From contig WFXH01000106.1 in the NCBI GenBank assembly GCA_015490715.1, positions 2,177 to 66,176 on the forward strand: DNA of 64,000 nt, given 5' to 3'. The translations under genes were made by a program, and so were the position numbers. The stretch is from Saprospiraceae bacterium (GTDB lineage: Bacteria > Bacteroidota > Bacteroidia > Chitinophagales > Saprospiraceae). The notes beneath the pieces were generated by a model. It did not search any database. It was not told where the DNA came from and was given only the letters and a program-made list of their open reading frames with translations. Below are positions 11,125 through 63,584 of this stretch, one piece after another (positions within the stretch are counted from its first letter, which is position 1; each line of letters starts with the position of its first letter).

Positions 11125-11288
11125 AAATGCAAGAGCTTTGATGGTTGTCTATTATAACATTTATCGTTCAAAATGGGGGTACAAGTATCGACTGTTATCC
11201 GTTGTATAAAGTGAAATTAATACGACAGGGCCATTGAACATATTTTTTATCACGGTCTTTAAAGAGGTAGACGTCTTTTAGGGAGTGT

Positions 11289-12470: not shown

Positions 12471-13708
12471 GACAGGACGTACAAGGAGATATATATCGAG
12501 TTGAAAAACGCGATGTGCGAAAGGGATGTGGTAAGTCGGGCATGTGCACAGTGCTCGGCTGCACGCGGCTGAGCACTGTCGATTGGTTGAGTTTGTTCGA
12601 CATCGAGGATCCCGAGCCCTTCGATTGCCACGAGGTGAGTTTTAAAAATGGAGCGACTAAGGGATTTTTTCGCAATGCCCGCAAGCTGGACATCTACACG
12701 GGCCAGTGGGTGGTGGTCGATACGGGCAATGGCAGAGATGTGGGCATAGTGACGCTGTCGGGTGAGCTTGCGCGATTGCAGATGAAAAAAAAGGGCATAG
12801 CCGAAGAGCATGTCGAGCACAACATCATACGTCACGCTACCGAGCAGGACTTACGGCGCATGGAAGAGGCGCGCCAGCGCGACAAGGAGGCGCTCATCAA
12901 GGCGCGCGTGATCATTCGCTCCTTAGGGCTGGACATGAGTTTGGGCGATGTGCAGTATCAGGCAGACTTGCGCAAGGCGACATTTTATTACACCGCTAAG
13001 GAGCGCGTCGACTTTCGAGAGCTGGTAAAAAAATTGGCTCGAGAATTTCGTATCAAGGTAGAGATGCGCCAGATTGGGGTGCGGCAGGAGTCGGCACGCA
13101 TCGGAGGCTTAGGGTCATGTGGGAGAGAGCTGTGTTGTTCGACGTGGTTGACCGAATTTAAGTCGGTGTCTACCTCAGCTGCGCGCTATCAAAATCTCGT
13201 CGTCAACCCCTCCAAACTCACAGGTCAATGTGGGAGGCTGAAGTGTTGTCTCAATTACGAACTCGATACTTATTTGGAAGCATTGCTCGACTTTCCCCTC
13301 AATGCGGAGGTGATTAAGCTCAAGGAGGGGCATGCGCGCTTGGTGAAGATGGACATTTTTAAAGGCTTGATGTACTATGTCAAGGAGATCGGCGATACGC
13401 GCAGCGTCATCACTCCGCTTACTAAGGAACAAGTACGCCAGTTGATCAAGCTCAACGAAGAGGGCATATTCCCGGCCGATTTGAAGGACGAGGCTAAGAC
13501 GAAAGCCGAAAGACAAGAAGGCAGGCCGAAGACCGCGTTGGATTCCCTTTCGACGGAATTTGTCTTGGAGCTCGATCAGCTCGAAAAGGAAACGCGTTCG
13601 CGTACGTCGAAAAAGTCGTCGGGTAAAAAGCAAGCTTCGGGGCAAGAGCAAAAGAAAAAGAGGCGTAGAAGACGCAAACCACCACATAACAAGACGAGAA
13701 AAAAATAG
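12467..13708 (+). CDS. PSP1 domain protein (YaaT/RicT-like)
   Basis: 'VQYQADLRKATFYYTAKERVDFRELVKKLAREFRIKVEMRQIG' and 'GGLGSCGRELCCSTWL...CGRLKCCLNYE'. ATGA overlap with the holB stop. K/R-rich tail. Confidence 0.85.
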   Translation: MRQDVQGDIYRVEKRDVRKGCGKSGMCTVLGCTRLSTVDWLSLFDIEDPEPFDCHEVSFKNGATKGFFRNARKLDIYTGQWVVVDTGNGRDVGIVTLSGELARLQMKKKGIAEEHVEHNIIRHATEQDLRRMEEARQRDKEALIKARVIIRSLGLDMSLGDVQYQADLRKATFYYTAKERVDFRELVKKLAREFRIKVEMRQIGVRQESARIGGLGSCGRELCCSTWLTEFKSVSTSAARYQNLVVNPSKLTGQCGRLKCCLNYELDTYLEALLDFPLNAEVIKLKEGHARLVKMDIFKGLMYYVKEIGDTRSVITPLTKEQVRQLIKLNEEGIFPADLKDEAKTKAERQEGRPKTALDSLSTEFVLELDQLEKETRSRTSKKSSGKKQASGQEQKKKRRRRRKPPHNKTRKK

Positions 13709-13711
13709 TCT

Positions 13712-31751: not shown

Positions 31752-34700
31752 TCAGTTTTCCTGTTTGAGGTTGAGGTTGAGTTGGGCACTGACGATGGGC
31801 ATGTATTTCTGGTAGACGGGCGAATCTTCGCCGAGGTACTGGAGGATGTTGAACACTTCGAACAGCGCTCTGGTGGTGAATTGCACATCCATTTCGAAGG
31901 ATTGGAGGTCTTCGTCGTCGAGGGATTGGTAGAATTCGAGGTCTTGGATGAGGTTGTCGATGAGGTCGGGCAGGTAGGTTTCGATGGTTTGGCGGTCGCC
32001 TGCTCTCATAAGTTCGTTAAAGAAGCTGACGGTTTGGTAGTCGAAGGGGAAATTCATGTTGGGGAATGCCTCGAATTGTTTTTGGATGAGTTTGATGGCT
32101 TTGTCCTTTTTGCCTTCGTCGATGAGCTCCATGGCGACGCGGAGCATGACGTATTTCATGGCTTGTACGGAGGGCGCATAGCTTGGATTGACGTAGGTGT
32201 CGTATTTATCGAAGTTGCCCCATCGGAATTTATTCATGATGCGTTTGTAGACCAGGTCGGTATCGACGTGTCCGAGGCCGAAGACGCTCAGATCGCGACG
32301 TGGTTGGTCGGTTTTGACGGCTGTGATGCGGAAGGCCAGTCCTTCGAGGCGCAGGTAGGGTTGGAGGCCGAGCATTTGTCGTTCGCGGACGGTGATGGCG
32401 AAGTAGATGGGTCGGTCCCAGATATTGGAGCCAATGATGTCCATGACGGCGATTTCGTCTTTACGCAGGTAGGGGATGTTGCCGAGGTTGAGCCAGATTT
32501 TGTCGGCGATGCTGTCGGTGGGTCGAGCCATGCCGAGTTCGATTGCACGTTTTTTGTTGACGGGGATGTAGATTTTGCGGGTGGGGAGGAAAGTTTCGAC
32601 TTGATCGCCGTAACGTGTAGAGACGGGATTTCTTTGGGCCAGATGTCTCAGGACGCGGTCGATGGGCCAGGGTTTTTCATTTTTGATGAGGCCTTCGGGG
32701 AAGGGGACCATATTGCGTTTTTCGCCGACGTATGCCTCGGCGGGGATGGTTAATTTGATTGGGGGCGATTCGTTGACTTTGCGGCGCATGGAGTTGATAT
32801 ACCAGTCGACGGCGATGAGGCTGAGGTTGATGACGCGCACATCGCGTCGGATTCCTTCTACTTCTTGGGCGTACCAGAGGGGATAGGTGTCGTTGTCGCC
32901 GTAGGTGAAGAGGATGGCGTTGGGTGAGAGGGATTCGAGGAAGTTAATGGCGTAGTCTCTTGCGGCGTAGTGGCCGCGTCGGGAGTGGTCGTCGAAGTTT
33001 TCGACTCCCATGATGGTCGGAGCGGAGAGTGCGAGGAGCGTACTGACGAGGGCGACGGTATGGGGTTGTTGGACGTATTTTTTGAGGAAGGCATAGAGTG
33101 CGGCAGCGCCAATGCCCACCCACATGGCAAAGGTGAAGAACGAGCCGGCTAAGACGTAGTCGCGTTCGCGGGGCTCATTTGGTGGTTGGTTGGAATAGAT
33201 GATAATGCCAATGCCGGTAATGATAAAGAGAGCGAGGATGGCGTAGAATTCCTTTGGGCTCTTGCGGTACTGGAACCACATGCCCAGCAGGCCGAGCAGG
33301 AGGGGTATGAAATAGTAGGTGTTGCGGGAGGGGTCGTTTTTCATGCGGTCGGGGAGCTTATCCATGTTGTAGAGGTGCCATTCGTCAATGGGTTTGATGC
33401 CACTGAGGTAATGGCCATTTTTGAGGTCCCACGGATAGAAGCCCTGCTTGCCGTTTTGTCGCCCGACGAAGTTCCACATGAAATAGCGCCAGTACATCCA
33501 ACCGAGCTGATAGCGGAGGAAGAAGCTGAGGTTGAAGGCCATGGTGGGCTTTTTGTTTTCGGAGGTGTTCCACATGCGGTAGATTTTGGGTCGATTTTGG
33601 TCGGTGTGGGAGATGCGCGGGAAGAGCATTTTATCTTTATCGCTGTATTCGTAGCTGAGTTTGTGATCGACGACTTCGTAGTGGTCCCCTACTCTTCCGT
33701 AGCGCGGTTCGCTCTTGATTCCGATGGGTTTGGCTTCGTAGTGTGGACCCCACAGGAGCGGTCGTTCGCCGTACTGTTCGCGGTTGAGGTAGGACAGTAG
33801 GCGCATGGGTCCGTACGGTTCGCTCATGTTGATGGGGGGATTGGCGTTGGCTCGGAGCACGACCATTCCATAACTGGTGTAGGCCAATATCATCAGGGTG
33901 GCGGCCATCATGGCAATTTGCAGCAGGTGGCTCTTTTTGCGGTGAGCCAAGCGGAATCCCCAGAGCAAGAGGCCGCCGATCACTATTATGACGAAGACGA
34001 TTCCACTGTTGAAGGGCAAGCCGAGGGTGTTGACCGCAAAGAGGTCGAATTTAGACCACAGCCAGGGTATTCCAGCGATAAGGAATTTTTGTATAAAAAT
34101 AATGCCCGCCGTGCCGAGGAGGCCCGCAAGCGCATATCCGACGAAGCTGTGCTTTTCAAAGCGCTTGAAATAGTACAGGATGCTGATGAGAGGTAAGGTG
34201 AGCAAGCTCAACAGGTGCACGCCAATGCTCAGGCCGATGAGGAAGAATGCGAGGACGAGGTATCGATCGTGTTCTCTGTCGTCGGGAAGGTCGTACCACT
34301 TGACGGCTGCCCAGACGGTGGCCGCGGTAAAGAAGCTCGAAAGTGCATAGACTTCTCCTTCGACGGCGGAAAACCAGATGGAAGTGGCAAAAGCCGAAGT
34401 CAGTCCAGCGACAAGCCCTGCACCTGCACTGATGAGGCTATCGGCCAGGGTGGGTTCTTTGATACGCCCGACCAGTGCGATTTTCGTCAAAATGACCGTC
34501 GTCAGAGCGACAAACATCGCCATAAAGGCGGTAGCCGTGGCCGACATGAGATTGACGGCTACCGCGATGTGGGAGGGATTGTCCGAAAGGAGATCCCCAA
34601 GCCAGGCGAAGATGCGACCTATCATGAGAAAAAGCGGTGCACCTGGCGGATGCACCACTTCGAGTTTGTATGCCGCTGAGATAAACTCTCCGCAATCCCA

Positions 34701-34802
34701 TAGGCTTACCGTGCTCTCTACCGAAAAGTAGTACACAATGGCGGCGATGGCAAAGGTGAGCCATCCGGCTATATTTTTCAATGTCTTATAACTCAACTGC
34801 AT
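31752..34802 (-). CDS. DUF2723 domain membrane protein (GT-C fold, TMEM260-like putative glycosyltransferase)
   Basis: 1016 aa. The N-terminal 'SVESTVSLWDCGEFISAAYKLEVVHPPGAPLF' is the DUF2723 signature. Many TM helices, then a large soluble C-terminal half. Confidence 0.8.
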   Translation of the reverse strand: MQLSYKTLKNIAGWLTFAIAAIVYYFSVESTVSLWDCGEFISAAYKLEVVHPPGAPLFLMIGRIFAWLGDLLSDNPSHIAVAVNLMSATATAFMAMFVALTTVILTKIALVGRIKEPTLADSLISAGAGLVAGLTSAFATSIWFSAVEGEVYALSSFFTAATVWAAVKWYDLPDDREHDRYLVLAFFLIGLSIGVHLLSLLTLPLISILYYFKRFEKHSFVGYALAGLLGTAGIIFIQKFLIAGIPWLWSKFDLFAVNTLGLPFNSGIVFVIIVIGGLLLWGFRLAHRKKSHLLQIAMMAATLMILAYTSYGMVVLRANANPPINMSEPYGPMRLLSYLNREQYGERPLLWGPHYEAKPIGIKSEPRYGRVGDHYEVVDHKLSYEYSDKDKMLFPRISHTDQNRPKIYRMWNTSENKKPTMAFNLSFFLRYQLGWMYWRYFMWNFVGRQNGKQGFYPWDLKNGHYLSGIKPIDEWHLYNMDKLPDRMKNDPSRNTYYFIPLLLGLLGMWFQYRKSPKEFYAILALFIITGIGIIIYSNQPPNEPRERDYVLAGSFFTFAMWVGIGAAALYAFLKKYVQQPHTVALVSTLLALSAPTIMGVENFDDHSRRGHYAARDYAINFLESLSPNAILFTYGDNDTYPLWYAQEVEGIRRDVRVINLSLIAVDWYINSMRRKVNESPPIKLTIPAEAYVGEKRNMVPFPEGLIKNEKPWPIDRVLRHLAQRNPVSTRYGDQVETFLPTRKIYIPVNKKRAIELGMARPTDSIADKIWLNLGNIPYLRKDEIAVMDIIGSNIWDRPIYFAITVRERQMLGLQPYLRLEGLAFRITAVKTDQPRRDLSVFGLGHVDTDLVYKRIMNKFRWGNFDKYDTYVNPSYAPSVQAMKYVMLRVAMELIDEGKKDKAIKLIQKQFEAFPNMNFPFDYQTVSFFNELMRAGDRQTIETYLPDLIDNLIQDLEFYQSLDDEDLQSFEMDVQFTTRALFEVFNILQYLGEDSPVYQKYMPIVSAQLNLNLKQEN

Positions 34803-44366: not shown

Positions 44367-47300
44367 ATGAAGAAGTTACTTGGCATTGCGAGTGCGTGTC
44401 TGCTGCTTATGGGCTATGCACGGTCACAGACGGTGCTTCAAGGGAAGGTAGTGGACTATGAGACGGGAGAGCCGTTGATAGCGGCCAATGTCGCTGTATA
44501 CTCCGACGGCTTGCTTGTGGCGGGTGATGTGACGGACTATGAGGGAAGTTTTCGCATTCCCGTTGATCCGGGCACGTACGAGGTAGAGGCATCGTATCTG
44601 GGTTATCAGACGATGCGGCTGACGGATATCGTGATGGTATCGGGGAAAATTCTCGTGCTGGATTTTAAGCTCAAGCGGGAGGGCGTAGTGCTCAAGGCTG
44701 TAGAGGTCAAGAGCAATAAGCCGCCCATTATCGACAAGGGCAATACGACGACGGGTCGTACGCTCACGGCAGAGACTATTCAAAATCTACCCTCACGCGG
44801 TGTCAACACCATCGTGACGCTTACGGCTGGAGCAACCTCTCAAGATGGAGGGAGCATCAACATCAAGGGAAGCCGAAGTGCGCAGACGGTGTACTATCTT
44901 GACGACATTCGGGTAACCTCTGCCAGCATGATTCCCAGTACAGAGATTGACCAATTGCAGGTGTTGACGGGAGGTATTGGGGCCGAATACGGAGATTTAA
45001 CGGGTGGAGTCATTGCGGTCACTTCGAAGGGGCCTCGAGGTAAGTTTAAAGGAGGCCTTGAGCTGGAGACTTCGCAGTTTCTCGATCCCTACGGCTACAA
45101 TTTGGCCAATATGTACGTCACTGGGCCGATATTGAAACGCGGCACCCGACCATTGCTGGGTTTCCGTGCTTTTGGTCAGTTTTTGTACCGCAAGGAGAGC
45201 GATCCACCAGCTGGAGGCATCTACGCAGCTACCGAAGAGACGATCAATGACCTATCGGTCAATCCGCTGATTAGGAAAGGGGGTATTTTGCTTCCGCGCG
45301 GTGAATTTCTCTCCTTAGGTAATGGCGTCGAACTCCGAAAGACGCGCCCCAACCAACCGCGTACCGATGTGGATTTAGGGGGGAAGTTATTCTACTACAT
45401 CAACGATGCCATGGATCTGACCGTGTCGGGGACGTACTCCAATGTGCACACGCGGTTTGTACCGCGCACATTCAATGGCGACAGTCGTTACAACTACTAT
45501 AGAGGTGCTGGCCCCTGGTATTTTTTCAATTGGCCGTACAATCCCGAGTTTATCCGCAACAACTACACCTTAAACATGCGCTTTCGCCATCGCCTGGGTG
45601 CCAAGTCGTCGATTGCACCTCCCAGCGGTGGGGAGAAGAAGAAAAAGCCCAACACCTCACTGATCAGCAATGCTTCGTATACGATCCATTTGGGCTATGA
45701 GCAGCAAAACTCAGTCGAACAAGATGCGCGACACAAGGATAAGCTCTTCAATTACGGATATGTCGGCAAGTTTGACCGTCGATGGGATACACTCGTACTC
45801 GGTGGGCTTCACATCGGATATCAAGAGCGTCTGGTATCGTACGAGCCTGCCGGCATCAATCCCATTCTTGAGTCGTACAACCAGTACATCGATCGCAAGC
45901 CCAATTTGTACTTTGAGTACAATGCGTACAACGGAGAGATTACGCCCCTGTACACTACGGTGTGGAACGTCTTCAGCAATGTCACTGGTGTGTACAATAG
46001 GTATCAAAAGAGAAAATTTGAGCGCTATACGGGTAAGGTGAAGGTGCAGTTTGACATCATTCCCTTTGGCATATCGCGCGGTGTGCACAACATCGTCGTA
46101 GGAGGTCAGTTTGAGCAGAGGGTGCATCGACTCTGGTCGGCCACTCCCATGGAGCTATGGAGAGCTGCGCGCATCTTAGCCAACCAGCACATCGGCTCGC
46201 TGGATACGCTCCACATCGTGGCTGAAAAGGATGGGGTGCCCATCTACGGCCTTCAGATTGAAGACGATCCCACCGACGTATTTGCCCGCGAAGTGCGCAA
46301 GCTGATGTTCCCCAACGAGCCGCTCATTGGGGAGGATAAAAACGGCACGATGTATCGGTATGTCAATACGGATATCCTATCGCCGGACGATTTGAGCTTG
46401 AGCATGTTTTCGCCGCGTGAGCTCTCCGACTTGCGCGTGTTGTACTTTTACGGTTACGACCACTTGGGCAACGAAACGCCCCTCAATGCGACGTTTGAAG
46501 ATTTCTTTAAGCGCGACGAAAACGGCGTACAGACCTTCACTGTAGCCCCATACAAGCCCATCTATGGGGCATTTTTCCTTCAGGATCGCTTCAACATCGG
46601 AGATATCATCTTCCGTTTTGGAGTGCGTGTGGATTATTTCGATGCCAATCAGAAGGTGTTGAAGGACAAGTATTCGCTGTATCCCATCATGACGGCGGCG
46701 GATTTTCACAGCGATCCGCAAAACGGGCCAAAGCCGCCCAACGTTGGCGACGATTTCAAGGTATATCTGGCCAAACCTGAGTCGAATGTCGTCTTGGGGT
46801 ATCGCGATGGCGATACGTGGTACGATGCCGAGGGTCGTCAGCTCAATAGCGGTAGAGAGCTATTCGGCGAAGGGGGATTGGTCCTGCCGGCCTTTTTGAA
46901 AGAGGATACGTTTTACAAGCTCGAAAGTCCCGCTTTCAATCCGGATTTAGCCTTCAAGGATTACGATCCCCAGGTCAATGTGATGCCGCGCCTGGGCTTT
47001 TCCTTCCCCATCTCCGATGAGGCCAATTTCTTTGCGCATTACGACGTGCTGGTGTCCAGGCCTTACACGGGAAACATCGCAACTGCTTATGATTACTTTT
47101 ATTTCACGGATCCCAACCGCACACCGGTCAATAATCCGGATCTCAAACCCGAAAAGATGATCGACTACGAGGTCGGATTTCAGCAAAAGATCACCGATAA
47201 CTCCGCCATTAAATTGTCGATGTACTATCGCGAATTCCGCAATCAAATTCAATTGCGCAATCTTCTCTTTACAGCTCCCGAGCCCATTAGTTCGTACATT

Positions 47301-48032
47301 CTATTTGACAACATCGACTTTGGTACGAGTAAGGGATTGACGGTCGAATACGAGTTGCGCCGTACGGGCAATGTGCAGATGCTCGTTTCCTATACTCTGG
47401 GCTTTGCAGAAGGCACGGGCTCGGATGAGGTTTCGCAGCGGCAGTTTATCAGCAGGGGCTTCAACATTCGCACCCTGTCGCCGCTCACCTTTGATGAGCG
47501 CCATCGGCTGGTGATGAACATCGATTACCGCTACGGCAGCGGCAAGCAGTACACGGGGCCGGAGCTCTATGGCATGCCGATATTCGAAAATACGGGTCTA
47601 AACATCCAGTTTACAGCAGCCAGTGGCCGTCCTTACACGAAGGCAAAGTTTCCCGGTCGCTTTGGAGGACGCGGCGTAGCGGGCCAAATCAATGGCGCGC
47701 GTCTACCTGCAAACTACACCGTCGACGCTAAGCTGGACCGACGTTTTACCTTCACTCTTGGAGGAAAGAAAAAGATCAACATGTATGCCTACCTGAGGGT
47801 CAATAATCTGTTTGATACGCGCAATATTCTCAGAGTGTATTCCTTTACGGGATCGCCCAAGAGCGACGGGTATTTTACGTCGGTAGAGGGACAAAATTCA
47901 CTGGCTCAGCTGCAACAATCGCGTCCTGAAGATGTGCAGTACTTCATCGAGATGTACAAGTTTCGCCTGCACAATCCGAACTTTTACTCTTTGCCGAGGC
48001 GTATACGCTTGGGCTTTTCCTTCTCATTTTAA
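44367..48032 (+). CDS. CarboxypepD_reg-fused TonB-dependent-receptor-like outer-membrane barrel (1221 aa)
   Basis: Signal peptide MKKLLGIASACLLLMGYARSQ. 'LQGKVVDYETGEPLIAANVAVY...PGTYEVEASYLGYQ' (carboxypeptidase-regulatory fold). Plug region 'TAETIQNLPSRGVNTIVTLTAG...IKGSR...VYYLDDIRV...EIDQLQVLTGGIGAEYGDLTGGVIAVTSKGP'. Long barrel ending 'RIRLGFSFSF'. Confidence 0.8.
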   Translation: MKKLLGIASACLLLMGYARSQTVLQGKVVDYETGEPLIAANVAVYSDGLLVAGDVTDYEGSFRIPVDPGTYEVEASYLGYQTMRLTDIVMVSGKILVLDFKLKREGVVLKAVEVKSNKPPIIDKGNTTTGRTLTAETIQNLPSRGVNTIVTLTAGATSQDGGSINIKGSRSAQTVYYLDDIRVTSASMIPSTEIDQLQVLTGGIGAEYGDLTGGVIAVTSKGPRGKFKGGLELETSQFLDPYGYNLANMYVTGPILKRGTRPLLGFRAFGQFLYRKESDPPAGGIYAATEETINDLSVNPLIRKGGILLPRGEFLSLGNGVELRKTRPNQPRTDVDLGGKLFYYINDAMDLTVSGTYSNVHTRFVPRTFNGDSRYNYYRGAGPWYFFNWPYNPEFIRNNYTLNMRFRHRLGAKSSIAPPSGGEKKKKPNTSLISNASYTIHLGYEQQNSVEQDARHKDKLFNYGYVGKFDRRWDTLVLGGLHIGYQERLVSYEPAGINPILESYNQYIDRKPNLYFEYNAYNGEITPLYTTVWNVFSNVTGVYNRYQKRKFERYTGKVKVQFDIIPFGISRGVHNIVVGGQFEQRVHRLWSATPMELWRAARILANQHIGSLDTLHIVAEKDGVPIYGLQIEDDPTDVFAREVRKLMFPNEPLIGEDKNGTMYRYVNTDILSPDDLSLSMFSPRELSDLRVLYFYGYDHLGNETPLNATFEDFFKRDENGVQTFTVAPYKPIYGAFFLQDRFNIGDIIFRFGVRVDYFDANQKVLKDKYSLYPIMTAADFHSDPQNGPKPPNVGDDFKVYLAKPESNVVLGYRDGDTWYDAEGRQLNSGRELFGEGGLVLPAFLKEDTFYKLESPAFNPDLAFKDYDPQVNVMPRLGFSFPISDEANFFAHYDVLVSRPYTGNIATAYDYFYFTDPNRTPVNNPDLKPEKMIDYEVGFQQKITDNSAIKLSMYYREFRNQIQLRNLLFTAPEPISSYILFDNIDFGTSKGLTVEYELRRTGNVQMLVSYTLGFAEGTGSDEVSQRQFISRGFNIRTLSPLTFDERHRLVMNIDYRYGSGKQYTGPELYGMPIFENTGLNIQFTAASGRPYTKAKFPGRFGGRGVAGQINGARLPANYTVDAKLDRRFTFTLGGKKKINMYAYLRVNNLFDTRNILRVYSFTGSPKSDGYFTSVEGQNSLAQLQQSRPEDVQYFIEMYKFRLHNPNFYSLPRRIRLGFSFSF

Positions 48033-48046
48033 TTAAATGCATTGGT

Positions 48047-51000
48047 ATGATGAAAAGGTTTCAAACGAATAAAAGGCAGAGCAATATGAACATGCTGCGG
48101 TATTTACTCCTTGTCGGGGTGTTTTTGGGACTATGGACTCCTGCGGAGGCCTATATCGTCCCCGGCAAGAAGAAAAAACGCGTGAGCAAAGTAGAGCTGA
48201 GGGAAAAGTGCAAACCACCAGAAGCTTTTGCGGATCTGAGTATCAACAATGTCCGCGCCCGACTGCTTACGGGCGGTGATTTGTGGTGGGACGGAGACGG
48301 CAAAGCGCGTTATGTCGTGCCCAAAGTCGATCCCACCTCGGGAGAGCCGGAAGTGTCCAGTCTCTTTGCAGGCTCGGTATGGATCGGTGGTTTTCAGGGT
48401 GGGAACTTAAAGGCTACAGCGCTCGACTATCGCACACAAGGATTTTCATGGTTTCCCGGTCCTCTTGACGACAGTACAGGGACGACCGATAGAGAGATTT
48501 GCGAGCGCTGGGACCGATTTTTTGAAGTGCTCGGCAAAGAGGTACGGGCTCATATCTCCAATTACAACAAGCGCAAGGAAGAAGGGACGTTGCCCATACC
48601 CGAAGATGAAATTCCCGATGGAGTAAAGTACTGGCCAGCCAAGGGCAATCGCTTTTTTGAAGAGCGATACCTCTTCCCCATCCCCGAGGGCAAACAGGGC
48701 TTTGGAACCTTTGCCGACGTCAATGGTAACTTCATCTATGACCCAGAATACGGCGACTTTCCCACCATCGAAATACGCGGTTGTGCGCTTTCACAAGAGC
48801 AAGTGCCCGACCAAATGTTCTTCTATGTCTACAACGACAAGGGGGCGGAGAGCACGCGCTTTGAGGGAGCCGTGGCCATGCAAATGGAGGTACAAGTGCA
48901 GGCCTTTGCCTATCAGACATCCGATGAGGTCAACGATATGACCTTTTATCGACACAAACTCATCAACCGGGCTACGCAGCGCATCGACAGTACCTACTTC
49001 GCCATGTGGGTCGATCCCGACTTAGGATGTTATGTTGACGACTACATCGGTTGTGATACCACAGGAGAAGTTGTGCTCGATACGGCTGGGAACTTTTTGG
49101 GATACCGCAGCCGAGACTTGATGTTTATCTACAACTCCGATGAGGTCGATGGCAATGTCGGCCCGGAATGCGATCAAGGGGTGCCCACTTATGGTACGAA
49201 CATCCCTATTTTGGGCGTGGACTACTTCCGCGGGCCGAAGGAGTTTTTCTTCGACTCCTTGGGCAATCCCCTCGATACCTTCGTAGAGCTCGGCATGTCG
49301 TCGTTTATGTATTACATCAACACGGGGAGCTCGCCCACGCCTATTCCTCCTATGACCGATCCCGATAAGATTACGGAAGTGTACAACTATATGACGGGGC
49401 GGTGGAAGGACGGCACGCGGCTTACCCTTGGCGGTACGGGCTATGACCCGCAGAGCACAAGGTATACGCGCTATGCTTTTCCCGGCTGGCCCAACGACCC
49501 CAATGGTTGGAGCATGTGTCAGGAGGGAACACCACCGGGTGATTTCCGCACAATACAAGCCTCAGGACCATTTATCTTGCTCCCAGGTGTGAAAAACGAG
49601 CTCATCATCGGCGTGGTATGGGTAGCTGATCAGGATTATCCCTGTCCTTCGTTGGATGAGCTCATTGCTGCAGATGAAAAGGCGCAGGACCTCTTTGACA
49701 ACTGCTTTGACATCACGGATGGACCGTCAGCGCCCAACGTTGACATTATCGAACTGGATCGCGAGCTCATCCTCGTATTGACGAATGATGACCCTACCCT
49801 CAATAACTACAAAGAGCAGTACAAAGAGCGGATCTTAGGCGCACCTCCCCAGATGAAAGATCCGTTTTACTATTTCGAGGGGTATCGCATCTACCAGGTA
49901 GCAGGGCCCAACGTCACGCGTGCAGAGCTCAACGATCCGGAAAAAGCTCGCGAAATAGCCACCTTTGACATCAAAAATGGTGTGAAAAAAATCTACAACT
50001 GGAAAGCCATTCCCAATCCCAACAAGCCCAGCGAACTCGTCTGGGTGCCTGAGCTCAAAGTCGAAGGCCTGGACAACGGCATACGCCATACGCTGCGCGT
50101 CACGGAAGACGCCTTTGCAGAATCAGGAGCCAAGCGGCTCATCAATCACAAGCCCTATTACTTCCTCGTCATTGCCTATGCCCAAAATAATGAGCTTCCT
50201 TTTGATCCAGATAGCCCCCTCACCACCTTTGAAACACCGTATATTGAGGGGCGTCTCAATGTGGGAGACGAAAACGGATTCCCCTACAAGGGTGTGCCGC
50301 GACCCATCATCTATCAAAAGCTCAATGCCGACTACGGCGATGGGCCGAAGATTGAAGCCTACGACGGTACGGGCGTCAACGGGCAGTTTTTGCGAATCGA
50401 TCAAGCCACAGAAGAAAAAATACTCAACGGCACCTTTGACGGCATCATCGGCTATGAAAAGGGTGCAGGCCCCATTCAAGTGCAGATTTACGATCCCCTC
50501 CGATGTAAAGATGGCGTGTTCTGGCTGTATTTTTACGACAGCAACAATCAAGATGCTGTCTTAGACAGCGATGCCAATTGGTATATGGTCTCGGAAGATG
50601 GTGACACCATCTTTTCCGAACGCACCATCGAACGACTCAATGAGCAAATCATCAAGAAATACGGTTTTGCCGTATCCATAGCGCAGACGAAAGAGCCCGG
50701 CTATTCGAAGGAGGACAACAACGGCTTTATCGGAGTAGAATACGAATATGCGCAAAACAAGCAGCAGCCGTGGCTCTTTACCGTGCCCAATGGATTCATC
50801 TACTTGTTTGAATTTCGCGGATTGAATCTCCAATTGCGCGCCTTCGATTTCATACAGAGAAACAACGAAAATATTACTAAAGTAGATCCCGCTGGAGCCT
50901 TTGCTTCGGCCTTTGGCCAGGGGTTTGTCCCCTACATCCTATGTGATCCAGAAACTTCGACAGGTTTAAGCGTCATTTCGCCAGCGTGGAGACACCCCAC

Positions 51001-52183
51001 TTCAGAAAACCACCAGAGCAGTCTCATAAGGAGTAGCAAGGCGTTTGACAACCTCAATAATGTCGACATCGTGCTGACGCCCGATAAATCGAAGTGGTCG
51101 CGCTGTATTATCGTCGAGACGACCACCAGGCCGATGGTTGAGTTTACAGGGCTTCAGACGGTGGGCCGTGCGGTAGAGTTTCAGCTCCGGCAAGATCCCT
51201 CTGTGTCGAAGGATGCCGACGAAAACGGTATGCCCATTCCGGACAATAGCGGAACAGTCGGTATGGGATGGTTTCCGGGCTATGCGATCGATGTGGAGAC
51301 AGGGCAGCGGCTCAACATTTTCTTTGGAGAGGCATCGATCTACAACAATGAAAATTTCTCGGATTTCCTGGATACCATCAAGCCGCAGGATGGGCTCTTA
51401 CGCGGTGCCGATATGATGTTTAATCCGACCGATGAAATGATCTTTCCCGAGTTGCTGTTTGACTTCTTATTGCCGCCGGCTGTGTCGTTTTACGCTGGTG
51501 GTCAGCACAAGATTTACGTGACGAATACGCCGTATGATTCGTGTAAGAGCTTAGTGCGATATTTTGAGCGAAGTCACAACCGCAACATCAAAAGGGGTGT
51601 TGCGAAGATCACCTGGGCTGCGATTGCTACGCTGCAGCCGGGACAGAAGATGCTTTCCTACGCCGAGGGATTGGTACCCGATGAGGTGCGCATACGTTTG
51701 CGCGTCAACAATCCGTATGCCGTGTACAGCCTGACGGGCCAAAACAACGGCCACAACATGTATAAAATCACTTTCGAAGGGGTGCAGGCGCGTCCCATCG
51801 AGGAAGGCGAAGTGCCTGAAGCCCTTAAGGAGGTGCGCGTCGTGCCCAATCCCTATTACGGCCAGTCGGATTATGAGGGCAATCCGCTGGAAAACATCGT
51901 GAAAATCACCAATTTGCCCGAGCGATCGACGGTGACCATCTATTCACTCGATGGGCGCTTCATCCGACAGTATAAGCGCAACTTCCCCAAACCGCCACAG
52001 GGTGCCGTGGTGGGCGACAAGCAGTTTACGCCGGACCTCGTCTGGGATCTGAAAAACGACAAAAACATTCCGATATCGAGTGGCACGTATCTCATCCACA
52101 TTCGCGATGAAGATACGGGTCAGGAACGCATCATCAAGTGGTTTGGTATTATGCGTAAGTTTGATCCATCTACATTGCGTTAA
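48047..52183 (+). CDS. 1378-aa secreted protein of unknown function with a T9SS-like C-terminal sorting domain
   Basis: Signal peptide 'LRYLLLVGVFLGLWTPAEA'. The C-terminal ~115 aa, 'VRVVPNPYYG...STVTIYSLDGRFIRQY...SSGTYLIHIRDEDTGQERIIKWFGIMRK', fits the T9SS CTD beta-sandwich pattern. I recognised no catalytic motif. Starts 14 nt after the upstream gene. Confidence 0.65.
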   Translation: MMKRFQTNKRQSNMNMLRYLLLVGVFLGLWTPAEAYIVPGKKKKRVSKVELREKCKPPEAFADLSINNVRARLLTGGDLWWDGDGKARYVVPKVDPTSGEPEVSSLFAGSVWIGGFQGGNLKATALDYRTQGFSWFPGPLDDSTGTTDREICERWDRFFEVLGKEVRAHISNYNKRKEEGTLPIPEDEIPDGVKYWPAKGNRFFEERYLFPIPEGKQGFGTFADVNGNFIYDPEYGDFPTIEIRGCALSQEQVPDQMFFYVYNDKGAESTRFEGAVAMQMEVQVQAFAYQTSDEVNDMTFYRHKLINRATQRIDSTYFAMWVDPDLGCYVDDYIGCDTTGEVVLDTAGNFLGYRSRDLMFIYNSDEVDGNVGPECDQGVPTYGTNIPILGVDYFRGPKEFFFDSLGNPLDTFVELGMSSFMYYINTGSSPTPIPPMTDPDKITEVYNYMTGRWKDGTRLTLGGTGYDPQSTRYTRYAFPGWPNDPNGWSMCQEGTPPGDFRTIQASGPFILLPGVKNELIIGVVWVADQDYPCPSLDELIAADEKAQDLFDNCFDITDGPSAPNVDIIELDRELILVLTNDDPTLNNYKEQYKERILGAPPQMKDPFYYFEGYRIYQVAGPNVTRAELNDPEKAREIATFDIKNGVKKIYNWKAIPNPNKPSELVWVPELKVEGLDNGIRHTLRVTEDAFAESGAKRLINHKPYYFLVIAYAQNNELPFDPDSPLTTFETPYIEGRLNVGDENGFPYKGVPRPIIYQKLNADYGDGPKIEAYDGTGVNGQFLRIDQATEEKILNGTFDGIIGYEKGAGPIQVQIYDPLRCKDGVFWLYFYDSNNQDAVLDSDANWYMVSEDGDTIFSERTIERLNEQIIKKYGFAVSIAQTKEPGYSKEDNNGFIGVEYEYAQNKQQPWLFTVPNGFIYLFEFRGLNLQLRAFDFIQRNNENITKVDPAGAFASAFGQGFVPYILCDPETSTGLSVISPAWRHPTSENHQSSLIRSSKAFDNLNNVDIVLTPDKSKWSRCIIVETTTRPMVEFTGLQTVGRAVEFQLRQDPSVSKDADENGMPIPDNSGTVGMGWFPGYAIDVETGQRLNIFFGEASIYNNENFSDFLDTIKPQDGLLRGADMMFNPTDEMIFPELLFDFLLPPAVSFYAGGQHKIYVTNTPYDSCKSLVRYFERSHNRNIKRGVAKITWAAIATLQPGQKMLSYAEGLVPDEVRIRLRVNNPYAVYSLTGQNNGHNMYKITFEGVQARPIEEGEVPEALKEVRVVPNPYYGQSDYEGNPLENIVKITNLPERSTVTIYSLDGRFIRQYKRNFPKPPQGAVVGDKQFTPDLVWDLKNDKNIPISSGTYLIHIRDEDTGQERIIKWFGIMRKFDPSTLR

Positions 52184-52196
52184 AAAAAGCAAGAAC

Positions 52197-53285
52197 ATGA
52201 GGAAATACTTGATCCTTTGGAGTTTTTGGTGGATGTTTTTTGGGGTAGGCACTCTACAAGCGGGCAATCCAGACCGACAGGGAGAGGCAGGAGCCTACGA
52301 GTTGCTCATGAATCCATGGGCGCGATCGGCAGGATGGCACAGCATGGCGGCAGCATTTATCAGCGGATACGAGGCCGAGCGCATCAATCCCGCCGGGATC
52401 GTCGGCTTAAACAAGCTGGAGTTGGCCTTTGGGAGTGGGCAGTATTTGGTGCCCAGTGGGGTGACAATGAGTAGCTTAGGTTTTGCCTATCGACTATCGT
52501 CGAGTGCTGCCTTTGGCATAAGCTTGATGAACGTCAACGTCGGAGAGATCGATCTGACCACTGTCACCTCGCCCGAAGGCACAGGCGCCACCTTTTCGCC
52601 CACTCTATTCAATTTAGGGTTGAGCTATGCCTACGAGTTTAAAGACGAGGAAAATCCCAATGCAGGTCGAATCCGAGTCGGTGGGCTGTTGCGTATCATC
52701 TACGAAGGCATTACCGATGCCGTGGCTTCAGGAGTTGGGCTCGATGCCGGCGTGCAATACATTTCGGGCAAACGGGATCAGTTTAAATTTGGTGTGAGCT
52801 TGCGCAATCTCGGCACAAAGATGCAGTATCGCGGTACAGGTCTGGGCGTCGTACTCGTGCCCGGCGACATCCGTACTGAAATACAAGCCGCCGGATTTGA
52901 TATCCCTTCCCTGCTGCACATCGGTGCATCTTATGACCTCTACTTTGGCAAACAGCTGCGAACGACTGTTGCGGGCAATTTTACGGCTAACTCTTACTCA
53001 AGAGACGAAATTGGTATCGGTGCCGAAGTGGCCTTCTTAGAGCGCTTTATGATCCGTGCGGCGTATAAATACGACAACCGCTTTGGCTTCGACCAATACC
53101 TCGACAAGGTCAACAATGCCTATACGGGTCTGAGTCTGGGAGCGAGTTTTATTCTCGATCTCTTCCACACGTACAACGATGACGGCACGGTGCGTTCGAC
53201 CACCAAACTCGCTGTCGATTATTCGTATCGACACAGCAGTCCCTTTGCGGGGACACATAATCTGACACTTGCCATCAAAATATAA
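52197..53285 (+). CDS. PorV/PorQ-family outer-membrane beta-barrel protein
   Basis: Signal peptide from ATG 52197. 'GEAGAYELLMNPWARSAGWHSMAAAFISGYEAERINPAGI' parallels the PorV N-terminal signature (..FLLI.PDAR..G.G..G.A.......NPA.L). About 360 aa of alternating strands. Starts 13 nt after the upstream stop. Confidence 0.6.
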   Translation: MRKYLILWSFWWMFFGVGTLQAGNPDRQGEAGAYELLMNPWARSAGWHSMAAAFISGYEAERINPAGIVGLNKLELAFGSGQYLVPSGVTMSSLGFAYRLSSSAAFGISLMNVNVGEIDLTTVTSPEGTGATFSPTLFNLGLSYAYEFKDEENPNAGRIRVGGLLRIIYEGITDAVASGVGLDAGVQYISGKRDQFKFGVSLRNLGTKMQYRGTGLGVVLVPGDIRTEIQAAGFDIPSLLHIGASYDLYFGKQLRTTVAGNFTANSYSRDEIGIGAEVAFLERFMIRAAYKYDNRFGFDQYLDKVNNAYTGLSLGASFILDLFHTYNDDGTVRSTTKLAVDYSYRHSSPFAGTHNLTLAIKI

Positions 53286-54541: not shown

Positions 54542-55270
54542 ATGCAATACTCGAGAGCTGCATTGATCGCGCTGATGGCATTTCCAATGTTCTTGATGGG
54601 CTGTCAAGATCGTCCAACCGTCCGACTCTCTGGGGTGCGGACGGAAATCTCCTATTCGCTACCACCTTTTGAATCGATTTCGGCCAGTGGTATTTTTGAG
54701 CTCGTGCTCAATCCGGGCGATGAAGAGAGAATCACTATCCGCACGGATACCGCCATTTTACCCTTTCTTCATGTAACAGTGCAAGACAAAGAACTTCGCA
54801 TCGACATGGATAAAATCAAGATAAAAAAACAAGACAAAACCTCTCCAAGTGAGGAGATATTTCCGGAAATAGAGGTGGTCTATCGGGGTATAAAACGGTT
54901 GGCGTACAGGGGAGTGGGCGTGTTGCGGACAGGCGATACCCTACGGGCTACGGCTTTGAAGCTCATACACAAGGGTGTGGGGGCCCTGTATCTCGATGCG
55001 GTGGTTGATGGGGATATCGATGTGATGTATGAAGGTGTGGGAGAGATGCTCTTAACTGGCCATGCGCAGCGCATGCATTTGAAAGCCTCCGGGGTGGGCA
55101 AGATTGATGCGGGCGCATTTCGCGTGGTCAATGGAGTGGTAGAGGCCCGGGGTGTGGGTGAGGTAGTGCTGTTTGTGACGGACACCCTTTGGCTGGGGGC
55201 AAAGGGCATCGGAGAAATGTCTTTTACAGAGAAGCCCAGAATAATCCGTCCCTATGGCGATGATCGATGA
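54542..55270 (+). CDS. DUF2807 / head GIN domain protein
   Basis: Lipobox 'MFLMGC'. Repeated beta-helix-like 'G(V/I)GxL/I' units: 'YRGVGVL', 'HKGVGALYL', 'YEGVGEMLL', 'ASGVGKID', 'ARGVGEVVL', 'AKGIGEMSF'. Confidence 0.6.
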   Translation: MQYSRAALIALMAFPMFLMGCQDRPTVRLSGVRTEISYSLPPFESISASGIFELVLNPGDEERITIRTDTAILPFLHVTVQDKELRIDMDKIKIKKQDKTSPSEEIFPEIEVVYRGIKRLAYRGVGVLRTGDTLRATALKLIHKGVGALYLDAVVDGDIDVMYEGVGEMLLTGHAQRMHLKASGVGKIDAGAFRVVNGVVEARGVGEVVLFVTDTLWLGAKGIGEMSFTEKPRIIRPYGDDR

Positions 55271-61387: not shown

Positions 61388-63427
61388 TCAAGGAACAAAT
61401 ATCGCCCTGTCGAATACGCGGTATCCCTGGGAGTTGCGCAGCACAAGGCGGTGCCATCCGGAGGATAAAGCTCGGATAGATACGACAGAAGGACGCCCTG
61501 GGGTCGAGGCAGGAATGCGAATGTGTCGTAGGATTGTTCCATTGGGATGGATGATAGCGCCTTCGAGTGTATCGCCATCGGAGTAGAAGAGCACAAGGGA
61601 TTGCGCAGTGGCGGCGACAGTGATGCGCACGCCGGTGGATTTATTCAAGAAGTACACTAAATTGGAGGAGATAGTCTCTCCACTTTGGAGGAGTGCTTTG
61701 ATGCGATACCACGGGCCCAGGGGCTGCCATTTGCGATGGAGCGGAAGGGTGTAGACAGAGCTGGGGCCTGTTTGCGGTGGGATGAGGGTACAATCGGTAA
61801 AGGACTGTCCATCGTTGGAGGCTTGGAGTATAAAATGGCTGATGGGTTGGGTGGGGGTGAGTTTCCATTGGAGTAAGGGTGGGTTGAGGTGGGGCAGTAG
61901 GTTGAGTTGGATGTGTTTGAATGCAAGGGTTTGGCAGTTGTAGATTTGCATATCGCTTTTGCCGCAGGAGCCCTGGCTGTAGTTGATGACGTCGTTGCCG
62001 GCGTTGAGGTCGTTGGTAGAGAGGGAACGGCGTTCGGTACCATTGGCCAGTGCGTAATGCATGACGTCGTTGGTATTGATGACGTGGCCGAGTTGGTGGC
62101 TATGGCCCAATTCGTGGAGGGCGACGGTTTCGAAGTCGTATTGGTTGTTGGCGGTGCTGTTGTCGGCGGCGTCGTAGTTCCAGTTGGTACCGTCGTTGAA
62201 GACGAGGTCGGTTTCGTCGAGCACCCAGGTAGTACCGCCGTTGCATCCGATGAAGTAGCTGTAGGATTGGCCCAAGACGCCTGCTGGCAGCTCGTTGCCG
62301 TTGTCGAAACGCACGACATTGACGCCGTCGCCGGCGGCCTGGTCGATGTTGGTGGTGCCGTTGTCGTCGAAGTAGACGCCCGTGCCGTCGCAGCGCCAGG
62401 TGTCGAGAGCGCGGCGGAATGCGTCACGCGCCTGTATGTTGTTGTACAGTTCGGTGTGATACTTCAACACGTATCCGCCGCTGCCATCGGCGTCGACCAG
62501 ATTGGTGCGGTATCGGCGGTTGTTGTACGTCACGTTGGTGATGTTGTATTCTACCGTTAGCGACGTGCTGCTCAAGGCGCTGCTTCCGCTGCTGTTGGTG
62601 ACGCGGAATTTGCCGGTACCTGCATCGGTGGGCACTTTGACCTTGATTTGCGTGTCCGACCACGAGACGTATTCTGTGCTGAGGGGCTCGACGTCGATGG
62701 TTGCGCCTCCGTTGTTGGCATTGCTAAACTCGACCCGTCCACTGCCCCTCGAGGCGCCAAATCCACTGCCGTTGATGGTCAAAATGACGCCCTTACCGGC
62801 TTGCACTGCACCAGGTGAAAAACTCGTAATGGACACGGCAAGGGGATCACGCCATTCGGCCTTCGCTCTTCGAAGGGCTTTCTCAATCCAGGAATGCCGT
62901 ATCGGATAGCCCCATTGCTTTAGCAGTGCGTACCATTCGCCATCAATAGATCCATACGAGCCGTATAAATCGTAAGCGCGATTGGTCACGAGGTCGTAGT
63001 ATACGAGACCGGCGTGGGCATAGATAGCTCGAAAACGAGGAAGCTCTGTAGGTCGTTCGTCTACGAGAGCAATAGGTGAGGGTTCGAGTAGCCACATGCC
63101 CGTCTGTCCCACGGAGGGATGCAATGAAGGCACAACCACCTCTCGGCGAGGAAAAATCGTCCCGCCCGGTGAGAGAAGCTCTACGGTAGTGCTGTTCAAT
63201 GTTCCCTTGAGTACCTGATGGACTTGTAGCACGTACACGGTATAGATATGTCCTTGATGGCTATCCATAGCCGTATATGCGTCTTGCACGGTGGCCTCTA
63301 CTACGTGGGAAGCGTTAGTCATTCGCTCTTTTAGCGGTGCTTGCACTATTTGAGCGTTCATTCCTTGAAAGTGGAGTAGGATGGAGAGAGAAAAAATACT
63401 GCAAAAACACCTGTTATACTGTACCAT
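61388..63427 (-). CDS. Secreted metzincin-like zinc metalloprotease with an IPT/TIG domain and a probable T9SS C-terminal domain
   Basis: Signal peptide from ATG 63427. IPT-like 'VSITSFSPGAVQAGKGVILTINGSGFG...GKFRVTNSSG'. Zinc motif 'HELGHSHQLGH' followed by 'DVMHY'. C-terminal 'IRALSSGWHRLVLRNSQGYRVFDRAIFVP'. Confidence 0.7.
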   Translation of the reverse strand: MVQYNRCFCSIFSLSILLHFQGMNAQIVQAPLKERMTNASHVVEATVQDAYTAMDSHQGHIYTVYVLQVHQVLKGTLNSTTVELLSPGGTIFPRREVVVPSLHPSVGQTGMWLLEPSPIALVDERPTELPRFRAIYAHAGLVYYDLVTNRAYDLYGSYGSIDGEWYALLKQWGYPIRHSWIEKALRRAKAEWRDPLAVSITSFSPGAVQAGKGVILTINGSGFGASRGSGRVEFSNANNGGATIDVEPLSTEYVSWSDTQIKVKVPTDAGTGKFRVTNSSGSSALSSTSLTVEYNITNVTYNNRRYRTNLVDADGSGGYVLKYHTELYNNIQARDAFRRALDTWRCDGTGVYFDDNGTTNIDQAAGDGVNVVRFDNGNELPAGVLGQSYSYFIGCNGGTTWVLDETDLVFNDGTNWNYDAADNSTANNQYDFETVALHELGHSHQLGHVINTNDVMHYALANGTERRSLSTNDLNAGNDVINYSQGSCGKSDMQIYNCQTLAFKHIQLNLLPHLNPPLLQWKLTPTQPISHFILQASNDGQSFTDCTLIPPQTGPSSVYTLPLHRKWQPLGPWYRIKALLQSGETISSNLVYFLNKSTGVRITVAATAQSLVLFYSDGDTLEGAIIHPNGTILRHIRIPASTPGRPSVVSIRALSSGWHRLVLRNSQGYRVFDRAIFVP

Positions 63428-63584
63428 AGCCCTGAAATTTGCCAAAATTTTGAATAAAAATACGCATTTTTGGGGAAAATGCATAAATTTTTATGGCTTG
63501 CAAGGTGTTCGGGCTACTATTTCATACAACGCATATCGAGTAGGGAATATTGGTCGATCGGCCAAAGTTTGTAATCTTTGTCGC

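Follow-up and report, generated by a model that had tools for sequence, protein, structure and literature searches.

A three-gene module of Bacteroidota that may join a giant, probably type IX-exported protein to a TonB-dependent transporter

In guts, soils, sludge and oceans, polymers are turned over mainly by Bacteroidota, and the outer membrane is where much of this biology takes place. Two systems found there, TonB-dependent transporters with surface partners and the T9SS (type IX secretion system), have been studied separately. The locus described here joins both. It lies in a 64,000-nucleotide (nt) stretch of DNA from a Saprospiraceae bacterium (contig WFXH01000106.1), referred to below as the window, and consists of a giant gene for a predicted secreted protein of 1378 amino acids (aa), preceded by a gene for a TonB-dependent transporter and followed by a gene for an outer-membrane barrel of the PorV/PorQ family. 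The closest described systems are known from Porphyromonas gingivalis, in which the C-terminal tail of PorU stays uncleaved on PorV and that of PorZ stays uncleaved on PorQ (PMC10202324). The cognate PorV-like barrels have been proposed to shield these tails from cleavage (PMC10202324). A barrel that holds a surface protein is also known from the Bacteroidota BAM complex, in which BamG, a FadL-family barrel, anchors the surface lipoprotein BamH (PMC12611786). BamP of the same complex was considered as a PorV-like precedent and set aside because it is periplasmic (PMC12611786).

The original prediction, made from the DNA letters and the translated open reading frames (ORFs), described the 1378-aa product as a giant secreted protein with a T9SS tail, without a known catalytic or adhesin domain, and as the payload of its operon. 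This core held up in the available tests. Three points had been missed, namely the fixed triad that the operon forms, the resemblance of the sorting domain to those of PorZ and PorU rather than to those of ordinary cargo, and the way in which the type of tail tracks the partner genes. The three-gene module points to an uptake complex of a new kind at the cell surface.

The three-gene module and the tail of its giant protein

The three window proteins were compared by tblastn with 84 loci, and counts were limited to loci with enough flanking sequence. The transporter gene lay upstream of the giant gene in 71 of 71 loci and the barrel gene lay downstream in 76 of 77. The genes were always co-directional and separated by short gaps. 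In the window, the giant gene starts 14 nt past the stop of the transporter gene, and the ATG of the barrel gene lies 14 nt past the stop of the giant gene (the mechanical ORF, from GTG 52080, would overlap the giant gene). Best-segment identities to the window proteins were similar for all three, ~40-45% in typical Saprospirales loci, and the three proteins appear to diverge at similar rates. The same gene order was found in distant members, including one from Salinivirgaceae (L083) and the loci L084, L085, L086 and L091. The giant proteins of L085 and L086 carry inserted BNR or Big_9/cadherin-like domains. In members of several orders (L083-L086, L091, L001, L002) the triad is followed by greA and a HIT-family gene, a synteny that is unusually deep for an outer-membrane operon. 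The triad of the window is followed by genes for methylmalonyl-CoA epimerase and TauE, not by greA-HIT, and L085 has a TauE gene two genes past its PorV-like gene.

The transporter gene encodes a signal peptide, a CarboxypepD_reg N-terminal extension (Pfam, 1.7e-14), a TonB-box-like segment, a plug (Pfam, 5.2e-07; 30.6 bits, cut-off 23.9) and a long barrel that ends in Phe. The barrel gave weak matches to TonB-receptor models in NCBIfam, and PF00593 was recorded for orthologues. The segment between the extension and the plug is of SusC style, L(D/E)xVxV..Y..PLI(D/E).DNTT, and was kept together with the C-terminal Phe in an alignment of 72 orthologues. The plug, the TonB-box-like segment and the terminal Phe are those of a TonB-dependent transporter, and with its extension the protein looks functional as judged from these features. 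The SusC/RagA models of NCBIfam were not matched. The barrel gene belongs to the PorV/PorQ family (NF033709, 102.4 bits, cut-off 90, aa 75-400 of the long ORF). It scored far below the equivalog cut-offs of PorQ (53 of 220 bits), PorV (41 of 250) and PorV2 (34 of 325), which places it nearer PorQ than PorV, and the PorP/SprF model of NCBIfam was reached at E 0.0097 only. Searches of PDB sequences with the transporter and with the PorV-like protein gave no match.

Some loci depart from the simple triad by an additional gene. A second giant gene directly follows the PorV-like gene in some Saprospiraceae (L002, L009, L022, L032, L044), and this second copy likewise has an extended tail, so one barrel might serve two giant proteins there. 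In L002 the second giant gene (10001-14020) is followed by a gene (14043-16454) for an 803-aa protein without a Pfam domain. Positions 1-330 of L084, a few kb upstream of the triad, belong to a shorter (824 aa) protein with CarboxypepD_reg and Plug domains. Its size is like that of PG0534 of P. gingivalis, a comparison made by size alone.

What kind of tail does the giant protein carry? Its C-terminal region matches the tail of PorZ in NCBIfam (aa 1255-1363, E 1.2e-05). Against the models of ordinary type A C-terminal domains (CTDs) it scored 17.7 bits on TIGR04183 (E 0.0025, cut-off 23) and E 0.13 on PF18962. Further evidence comes from fold comparison. An AlphaFold2 model of the C-terminal part had a single significant match in the PDB, which was the C-terminal domain of PorZ (5m11; E 1.4e-06, 136 columns, 20% identity). 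The next matches were PorU (6za2; E 0.06, ~186-189 columns), an isolated cargo CTD (E 0.15) and FN3 domains (E ~0.08-0.1). The resemblance to PorZ and PorU is confined to the tail. On the whole PorZ model (NF052228, cut-off 260 bits) the window protein reached 24 bits, and the matched part was the tail alone (model positions 665-751 of 757). The PorU sortase model (NF033707, cut-off 420 bits) was not matched by the window protein and was reached by relatives only at positions 992-1076 of 1095, and Peptidase_C25 was absent from the Pfam results. A PorU-like sortase identity was rejected because the tails alone match.

The tails of triad members share a C-terminal extension, KWFGxxRxxD(P/L)xx(L/F), present in the window protein as IKWFGIMRKFDPSTLR and conserved to the last residues. 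All seven of the other Saprospiraceae triad members and the window protein match the PorZ tail (E 6.8e-08 to 6e-03). Those seven had no TIGR04183 match at E<0.01, and the window protein is a partial exception with its E of 0.0025, yet it stays under the cut-off. TIGR04183 matched 18 of 36 family members, some above its cut-off. In a wide alignment, 12 of 36 sequences lack the extension and finish with a type A tail of the ordinary kind, which is poorly conserved. Seven of these 12 were scanned against NCBIfam; four matched TIGR04183 (21-35 bits, three above cut-off), three had no match, and none matched PorZ. Four ordinary-tail paralogues (P0210, P0166, P0251 and P0161, in loci L087-L090) have neither a transporter gene nor a PorV-like gene adjoining. 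Among them, P0166 reached 33 bits on TIGR04183, and P0210, P0251 and P0161, which had no NCBIfam match, were classed as ordinary by alignment. In other words, the type of tail tracks the presence of the partner genes, an association that is clean in a small sample. From its tail alone, the protein P0203 was predicted to belong to a triad, and its locus was found to hold a complete triad followed by greA-HIT. The orphan paralogues retain the body motifs with cargo-type tails, which suggests that binding or catalysis is intrinsic to the body and is coupled to uptake by the triad. In L090, the giant paralogue is preceded by another domain-less gene (1314 aa).

The family is large. An exhaustive search of 1.84 billion representatives, clustered at 50% identity, with aa 50-1249 as the query and the tail left out, recovered 6020 clusters at E<=1e-3, of which 1263 also passed E<=1e-30. 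The top 150 were mostly full-length (1200-1700 aa), about one fifth being shorter and partial, and identity across orders was ~35% over ~1200 residues. In a single homology search, the best 120 matches were all full-length, 46-97% identical to the window protein, annotated at most as 'hypothetical' and without Pfam domains. Members from Saprospiraceae and Lewinellaceae include the cultured Neolewinella antarctica, Neolewinella aquimaris and Membranihabitans marinus and an Aureispira metagenome-assembled genome (MAG). Those from Bacteroidales and Marinilabiliales include the cultured Salinivirga cyanobacteriivorans (L21SP5_02438), and one member comes from a 'Chlorobi bacterium' MAG. Cultured hosts thus exist in both groups. 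The only names given to members at NCBI are 'T9SS type A sorting domain-containing protein' and 'hypothetical protein', and a literature search found no description of the family or of the three-gene operon.

Body and conserved sites of the giant protein

The ORF of the giant gene is real, with more than 2600 full-length homologues in one search besides the clusters of the exhaustive search. Its true start may be Met14. A 97%-identical homologue (P0001) is 1365 aa long, a length that matches this start, and translation from Met14 gives a more typical signal peptide of 22 residues, MNMLRYLLLVGVFLGLWTPAEA. The N-terminus is hydrophobic in all aligned homologues though variable in sequence. In the window protein it ends in AEA, as read from the translation, and has the character of the Sec signal peptide that accompanies a type A CTD. 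No lipobox Cys was seen in the translation near the cleavage site.

The body of the protein, as far as these searches reached, is covered by no model in Pfam or NCBIfam and has no relative among PDB structures. Pfam gave no match for the window protein and none in 29 relatives. NCBIfam, applied to the window protein and then to 36 and 21 relatives, found no domain beyond the C-terminal tail. PDB sequences were not matched by phmmer with the single sequence or with a 29-sequence profile. At the level of sequence, the predicted lack of a recognisable domain was therefore borne out, the C-terminal sorting domain being the only match. A confident match to PorU or another C25 peptidase, to a glycoside hydrolase or to an SprB-type adhesin that explains the body was looked for in Pfam, NCBIfam, PDB sequences and Foldseek results, and none was found. 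For example, no catalytic domain of a known enzyme family or glycoside hydrolase was matched in Pfam, NCBIfam, PDB sequences or PDB folds. SusD was not matched in Pfam or NCBIfam, no SusD/RagB or BtuG fold appeared among the Foldseek results, and the type B CTD model of SprB/RemA-type proteins (TIGR04131) had no match in the window protein.

Two overlapping AlphaFold2 models were built, each from a 120-sequence alignment. The N-terminal model (m2172a77748ae, aa 36-900) had a predicted local distance difference test score (pLDDT) of 85 and a predicted template-modelling score (pTM) of 0.77, and the C-terminal model (m703ae872e4fd, aa 745-1378) had a pLDDT of 87 and a pTM of 0.85. Both were used as whole multi-domain queries in Foldseek against the PDB, and the C-terminal model was also searched against viral predicted structures, where only sorting-domain-like and immunoglobulin (Ig)-like matches appeared. 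The N-terminal model showed only weak likeness to large beta-sandwich proteins (template-modelling score <=0.2, root-mean-square deviation 8-20 A), among them Cu amine oxidase, the N-domains of GH94 and GH116 and an exo-arabinanase. With such values, homology to GH94, GH116 or amine oxidase was not accepted. These matches appear to concern beta-sandwich regions, because the N-terminal model has few helices. The original claim that no FN3 domain is present held for the sequence pattern and perhaps does not hold for the fold, since there is a weak indication of at least one FN3/Ig-like sandwich (6hyf; E 0.075, TMt 0.53). The boundary and the FN3 likeness of the region at aa 560-750 are approximate, and the weak FN3 fold matches came from the overlapping C-terminal model.

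Mean column identity was 57% within Saprospiraceae and 33% in a family-wide alignment of 36 sequences. Some relatives (P0258, P0188, P0192) have BNR or Big_9/cadherin-like domains inserted in mid-protein. The four N-terminal motifs quoted in the original prediction were all located, DLSINNVRARLLTGGDLWWDG at aa 63-83, SSLFAGSVWIGGF at aa 104-116, SWFPGPLD at aa 134-141 and WVDPDLGCYVDDYIGCD at aa 321-337, and alignments showed them to be conserved across the family. The most conserved and active-site-like part of the protein is not N-terminal and lies at aa 1072-1158. The last of the four had been described as an Asp-rich, Cys-flanked block and a possible metal or Ca2+ site. Across the family the block follows W-x-D-x-D-x-G-x(3)-D-D-x(2)-G-x-D, with Asp and Gly residues that are almost invariant (G335 in 36 of 36, as is W321; D323 in 35; G327 and D332 in 34; D331 and D337 in 33; D325 in 32), and a structural metal or Ca2+ site is plausible. 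The flanking Cys residues are specific to clades (C328 in 24 of 36, C336 in 25 of 36), C328 being replaced in the Bacteroidales clade, and with these counts an obligate C328-C336 disulfide around the block was rejected family-wide. Two other pairs of Cys residues are suggested by conservation to form disulfides. C55 and C152 are invariant, and C375 and C491 co-vary (both present in 19 sequences, both absent in 13).

Conservation across the family peaks at aa 1001-1100, at the start of an alpha/beta domain. The best single motif, at aa 1072-1097, reads G-M-G-W-F-P-G-Y-A-I-D-V-E-T-G-x-R-L-N-I-F-F-G-E-N-S. After it come DMMFNP (1122-1127; D-M-x-[FW]-N-P) and GGQHKIYV (1151-1158; G-G-x-H-x-I-Y-V). 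The polar residues T1011, W1017, S1052, Y1079, E1084, R1088, E1095, D1122, N1126, H1154, Y1157 and Y1163 are invariant in aa 1001-1250, and H1154 is the only invariant His. From alignment and model together, these are the foremost candidate residues for binding or catalysis. They fit no known catalytic signature, and Foldseek of the C-terminal model gave no PDB fold match for this domain. A Cys/His dyad of C1020 and H1154 was considered and rejected, C1020 lying inside a beta-strand, being replaced in 5 of 36 sequences and tending to co-occur with C1166. Because of this co-occurrence, C1020 looks like a disulfide partner.

Table 1. Positions of the three genes and of the parts of the giant protein in the window
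Feature	Position (nt)	Strand	Remarks
TonB-dependent transporter gene (gene 1)	44367..48032	+	1221 aa from ATG 44367; mechanical ORF from TTG 44331
Giant protein gene (gene 2)	48047..52183	+	1378 aa; ATG start; alternative start 48086 = Met14
Sec-type signal peptide	48047..48151	+	aa 1-35, or 14-35 from Met14; cleavage expected after AEA; read from translation
N-terminal, mostly beta module	48194..49711	+	~aa 50-555; helical insert ~aa 149-208; holds the four N-terminal motifs and C55/C152; AlphaFold2 model
Asp-rich block WVDPDLGCYVDDYIGCD	49007..49057	+	aa 321-337; 36-sequence family-wide alignment
FN3/Ig-like beta-sandwich region	49724..50296	+	~aa 560-750; GPxAPxVD..EL ... YxFEGYxVYQ; strands only in AlphaFold2 model
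Middle region, mixed beta/helix	50297..51046	+	~aa 751-1000; AlphaFold2 model m703ae872e4fd; least conserved stretch, aa 900-1000, at its end
Conserved alpha/beta domain, candidate functional site	51047..51796	+	~aa 1001-1250; pLDDT mostly >90
Most conserved motif GMGWFPGYAIDVETGQRLNIFFGEAS	51260..51337	+	aa 1072-1097; alignment blocks; automatically chosen as best pattern for genome scan
C-terminal T9SS sorting domain, divergent/extended	51830..52183	+	aa 1262-1378; ending IKWFGIMRKFDPSTLR
PorV/PorQ-family outer-membrane barrel gene (gene 3)	52197..53285	+	362 aa; ATG 52197 read from sequence

The rest of the window holds housekeeping genes, including those for proC, a 2-hydroxyacid dehydrogenase, methylmalonyl-CoA epimerase, TauE, DNA ligase, ThrRS and GcvP. 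In a genome scan, the window came out 97% identical at the protein level to a MAG of Saprospiraceae. Three other proteins were recorded. A 1016-aa protein (31752-34802, minus strand) has a TMEM260-like protein O-mannosyltransferase domain (PF11028, E 7.7e-60). A 698-aa protein (61388-63484, minus strand), possibly secreted, combines IPT/TIG with matrixin (M10) peptidase domains. A gene at 54542-55270 (plus strand), a short way downstream of the triad, encodes a 242-aa DUF2807 protein ('head GIN domain', putative autotransporter-adhesin-like). GC skew of the plus strand is 0.1-0.3 over the first 44 kb, where genes lie on both strands, and ~0 (-0.01 to 0.09) over 44-54 kb, the interval of the transporter, giant and PorV-like genes.

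A model for the module and its alternatives

How might the three proteins act together? From the features described above we infer a chain of steps that runs from export to uptake. The 1378-aa protein would cross the inner membrane by Sec and acquire its fold in the periplasm, where disulfides such as C55-C152 would probably form, and the T9SS would then export it over the outer membrane through its C-terminal domain. This domain would be kept uncleaved as in PorZ and PorU, unlike that of ordinary cargo, and would dock in the PorQ-like barrel encoded directly downstream, so that the protein is held on the cell surface. There, the beta-rich body and the alpha/beta domain (E1084, R1088, E1095, D1122, N1126, H1154) would bind or process an extracellular substrate, and the product would pass to the TonB-dependent transporter encoded upstream for energised import.

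The steps of this chain differ in how probable they are. The protein is very probably a surface or secreted substrate of the T9SS, as indicated by its signal peptide and sorting domain, by the NCBI names of its relatives and by the TIGR04183 matches in half of the aligned family. By analogy with PorZ and PorU, retention of the tail and its docking in the barrel are rather probable, and cooperation with the transporter in import has a somewhat less than even chance. The whole chain, including substrate capture or processing for the transporter, is given a probability of about 0.4. Tentatively, many Bacteroidota may possess an outer-membrane machine not described before, in which a TonB-dependent transporter is combined with a non-lipoprotein partner. 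On this equally tentative reading, the body may represent a new family of folds, and its site for binding or catalysis may be new as well.

If this model is true, several consequences follow. PorZ-PorQ-style anchoring would be a general way to build surface complexes, and the T9SS would be tied directly to TonB-dependent uptake. PorV-family barrels would become testable as dedicated anchors of proteins that are not part of the secretion machinery. A sequence rule in the sorting domain would decide between 'cleave and release' and 'keep and dock'. Furthermore, the giant protein would represent a new class of transporter partner.

Several observations weigh against the uptake model. Operon adjacency is the only link of the giant protein to the transporter, and the body has no detectable likeness to any binding protein or enzyme, so its substrate and chemistry are guesses. 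The 'PorZ-like' tail is not uniform across the family, since six of seven Bacteroidales triad members score just below the cut-off of TIGR04183 (18-21 bits) and two of seven match the PorZ or PorU tail. The orphans behind the tail-type rule number only four. In a single locus with ample flank (L038, 16 kb, no N runs), the stretch past the giant gene yielded no PorV-like gene. Finally, the housekeeping setting, with greA-HIT in several orders, and the high conservation fit a housekeeping envelope machine at least as well, and in P. gingivalis the T9SS needs PG0534, a protein that resembles TonB-dependent receptors, in order to function (PMC5445135).

These last points lead to an alternative in which the module has a housekeeping role, either in the envelope or as an accessory complex of the T9SS. 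In addition to PorU-PorV and PorZ-PorQ, there would be a third 'attachment-type' pair, made up of the giant protein and the PorQ-like barrel, which with the TonB-receptor-like barrel would serve secretion, surface attachment or outer-membrane biogenesis, not nutrient uptake. The PorZ/PorU-like tail and a partner barrel nearer PorQ than PorV are consistent with this, as are the precedent of PG0534, the usually single copy of the gene in its housekeeping neighbourhood and a degree of conservation within Saprospiraceae that is unusually high for a surface protein. However, the body is unlike PorU with its C25 domain or PorZ with its beta-propellers, and the transporter retains the canonical TonB-box-like segment and plug that are typical of importers. 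The orphan paralogues with cargo-type tails resemble ordinary secreted proteins rather than machine parts, and no named member turned up from model T9SS organisms, for which no direct search was made. On balance, an accessory complex is unlikely.

The orphan paralogues with normal cargo tails also favour a further explanation, which is about as probable as the accessory complex. Here the giant protein would be an enzyme (a hydrolase or lyase) with a new fold that the T9SS exports as ordinary cargo; it would be cleaved and either released or, like other type A cargo, placed on anionic lipopolysaccharide. Its operon with the transporter would serve co-regulation only, and the PorV-like protein would be a dedicated shuttle, not an anchor. 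Specialised shuttles are known for particular tails, namely those of type B cargo (PMC12618676), and the invariant acidic, His and Arg residues clustered in a confidently folded alpha/beta domain would suit an enzyme. Against this, the extended tail specific to triads is strongly conserved to its last residues, which is unexpected for a discarded piece, and it is closer to retained than to cleaved tails.

Large adhesins and surface-layer (S-layer) proteins are among T9SS exports, and the least probable explanation is that the giant protein is of this non-enzymatic, structural kind, built of stacked beta-sandwiches as the mostly beta, multi-domain models, the weak FN3/Ig-like matches and the Big_9/cadherin-like or BNR insertions of some relatives would allow; yet such proteins are usually fast-diverging and repetitive, whereas this protein has no internal repeats seen by Pfam, is ~35% identical across orders over its long body and retains a compact group of invariant polar residues, and its fixed pairing with a TonB-dependent transporter would be left without explanation.

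Comparison with known systems

The giant protein shares with ordinary type A CTD cargo (TIGR04183/PF18962) a signal peptide and a C-terminal beta-sandwich sorting domain, and some of its ordinary-tail paralogues score above the TIGR04183 cut-off. Unlike that cargo, the window protein stays below it (17.7 against 23 bits) and carries at its C-terminus a conserved extension that ordinary tails lack. Membership in the type A class, judged by these model scores, appears borderline for the window protein and clear for some relatives. The window protein is also distinct from gliding adhesins of the SprB/RemA type, because it has no type B CTD and its neighbour belongs to the PorV/PorQ family, not to PorP/SprF.

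Oar of Myxococcus xanthus has a carboxypeptidase-regulatory-like extension. Oar and PG0534 of P. gingivalis resemble the transporter of the module in being TonB-receptor-like barrels tied to secretion or T9SS function (for PG0534, PMC5445135), a likeness of generic architecture. PG0534 is ~92 kDa, compared with ~135 kDa for the window transporter. Furthermore, the giant protein has its own T9SS signal and so would not need the transporter for its export.

The transporter of the module, with its carboxypeptidase-regulatory-like extension, is encoded beside a large, predicted surface protein that could capture substrate, and its operon logic is that of SusC-SusD, of utilisomes and of BtuB-BtuG. 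The partners known from those systems are lipoproteins anchored by an N-terminal lipid, whereas the window protein has no lipobox. It also has no similarity to SusD or BtuG and would reach the surface through the T9SS, with a separate barrel as its anchor.

The nearest likeness is to PorZ-PorQ and PorU-PorV. These pairs consist of large surface proteins exported by the T9SS whose CTD is bound by a 14-strand barrel of the PorV/PorQ family (PMC10202324). Likewise, the best sequence and fold matches of the window tail are to PorZ and then to PorU, and a gene of the PorV/PorQ family lies directly downstream. The module differs from them in that the body has neither a C25 domain nor beta-propellers (24 bits against the PorZ cut-off of 260), the barrel scores under both the PorQ and the PorV cut-offs, the unit includes a gene for a TonB transporter, and retention of the tail is here a matter of prediction. 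In its proposed anchoring the protein is most like these pairs, and in its place beside a transporter it is most like the partners in SusC-SusD or BtuB-BtuG, without belonging to any of these systems; what is newly found is the invariant triad and the rule that links the type of tail to the partner genes.

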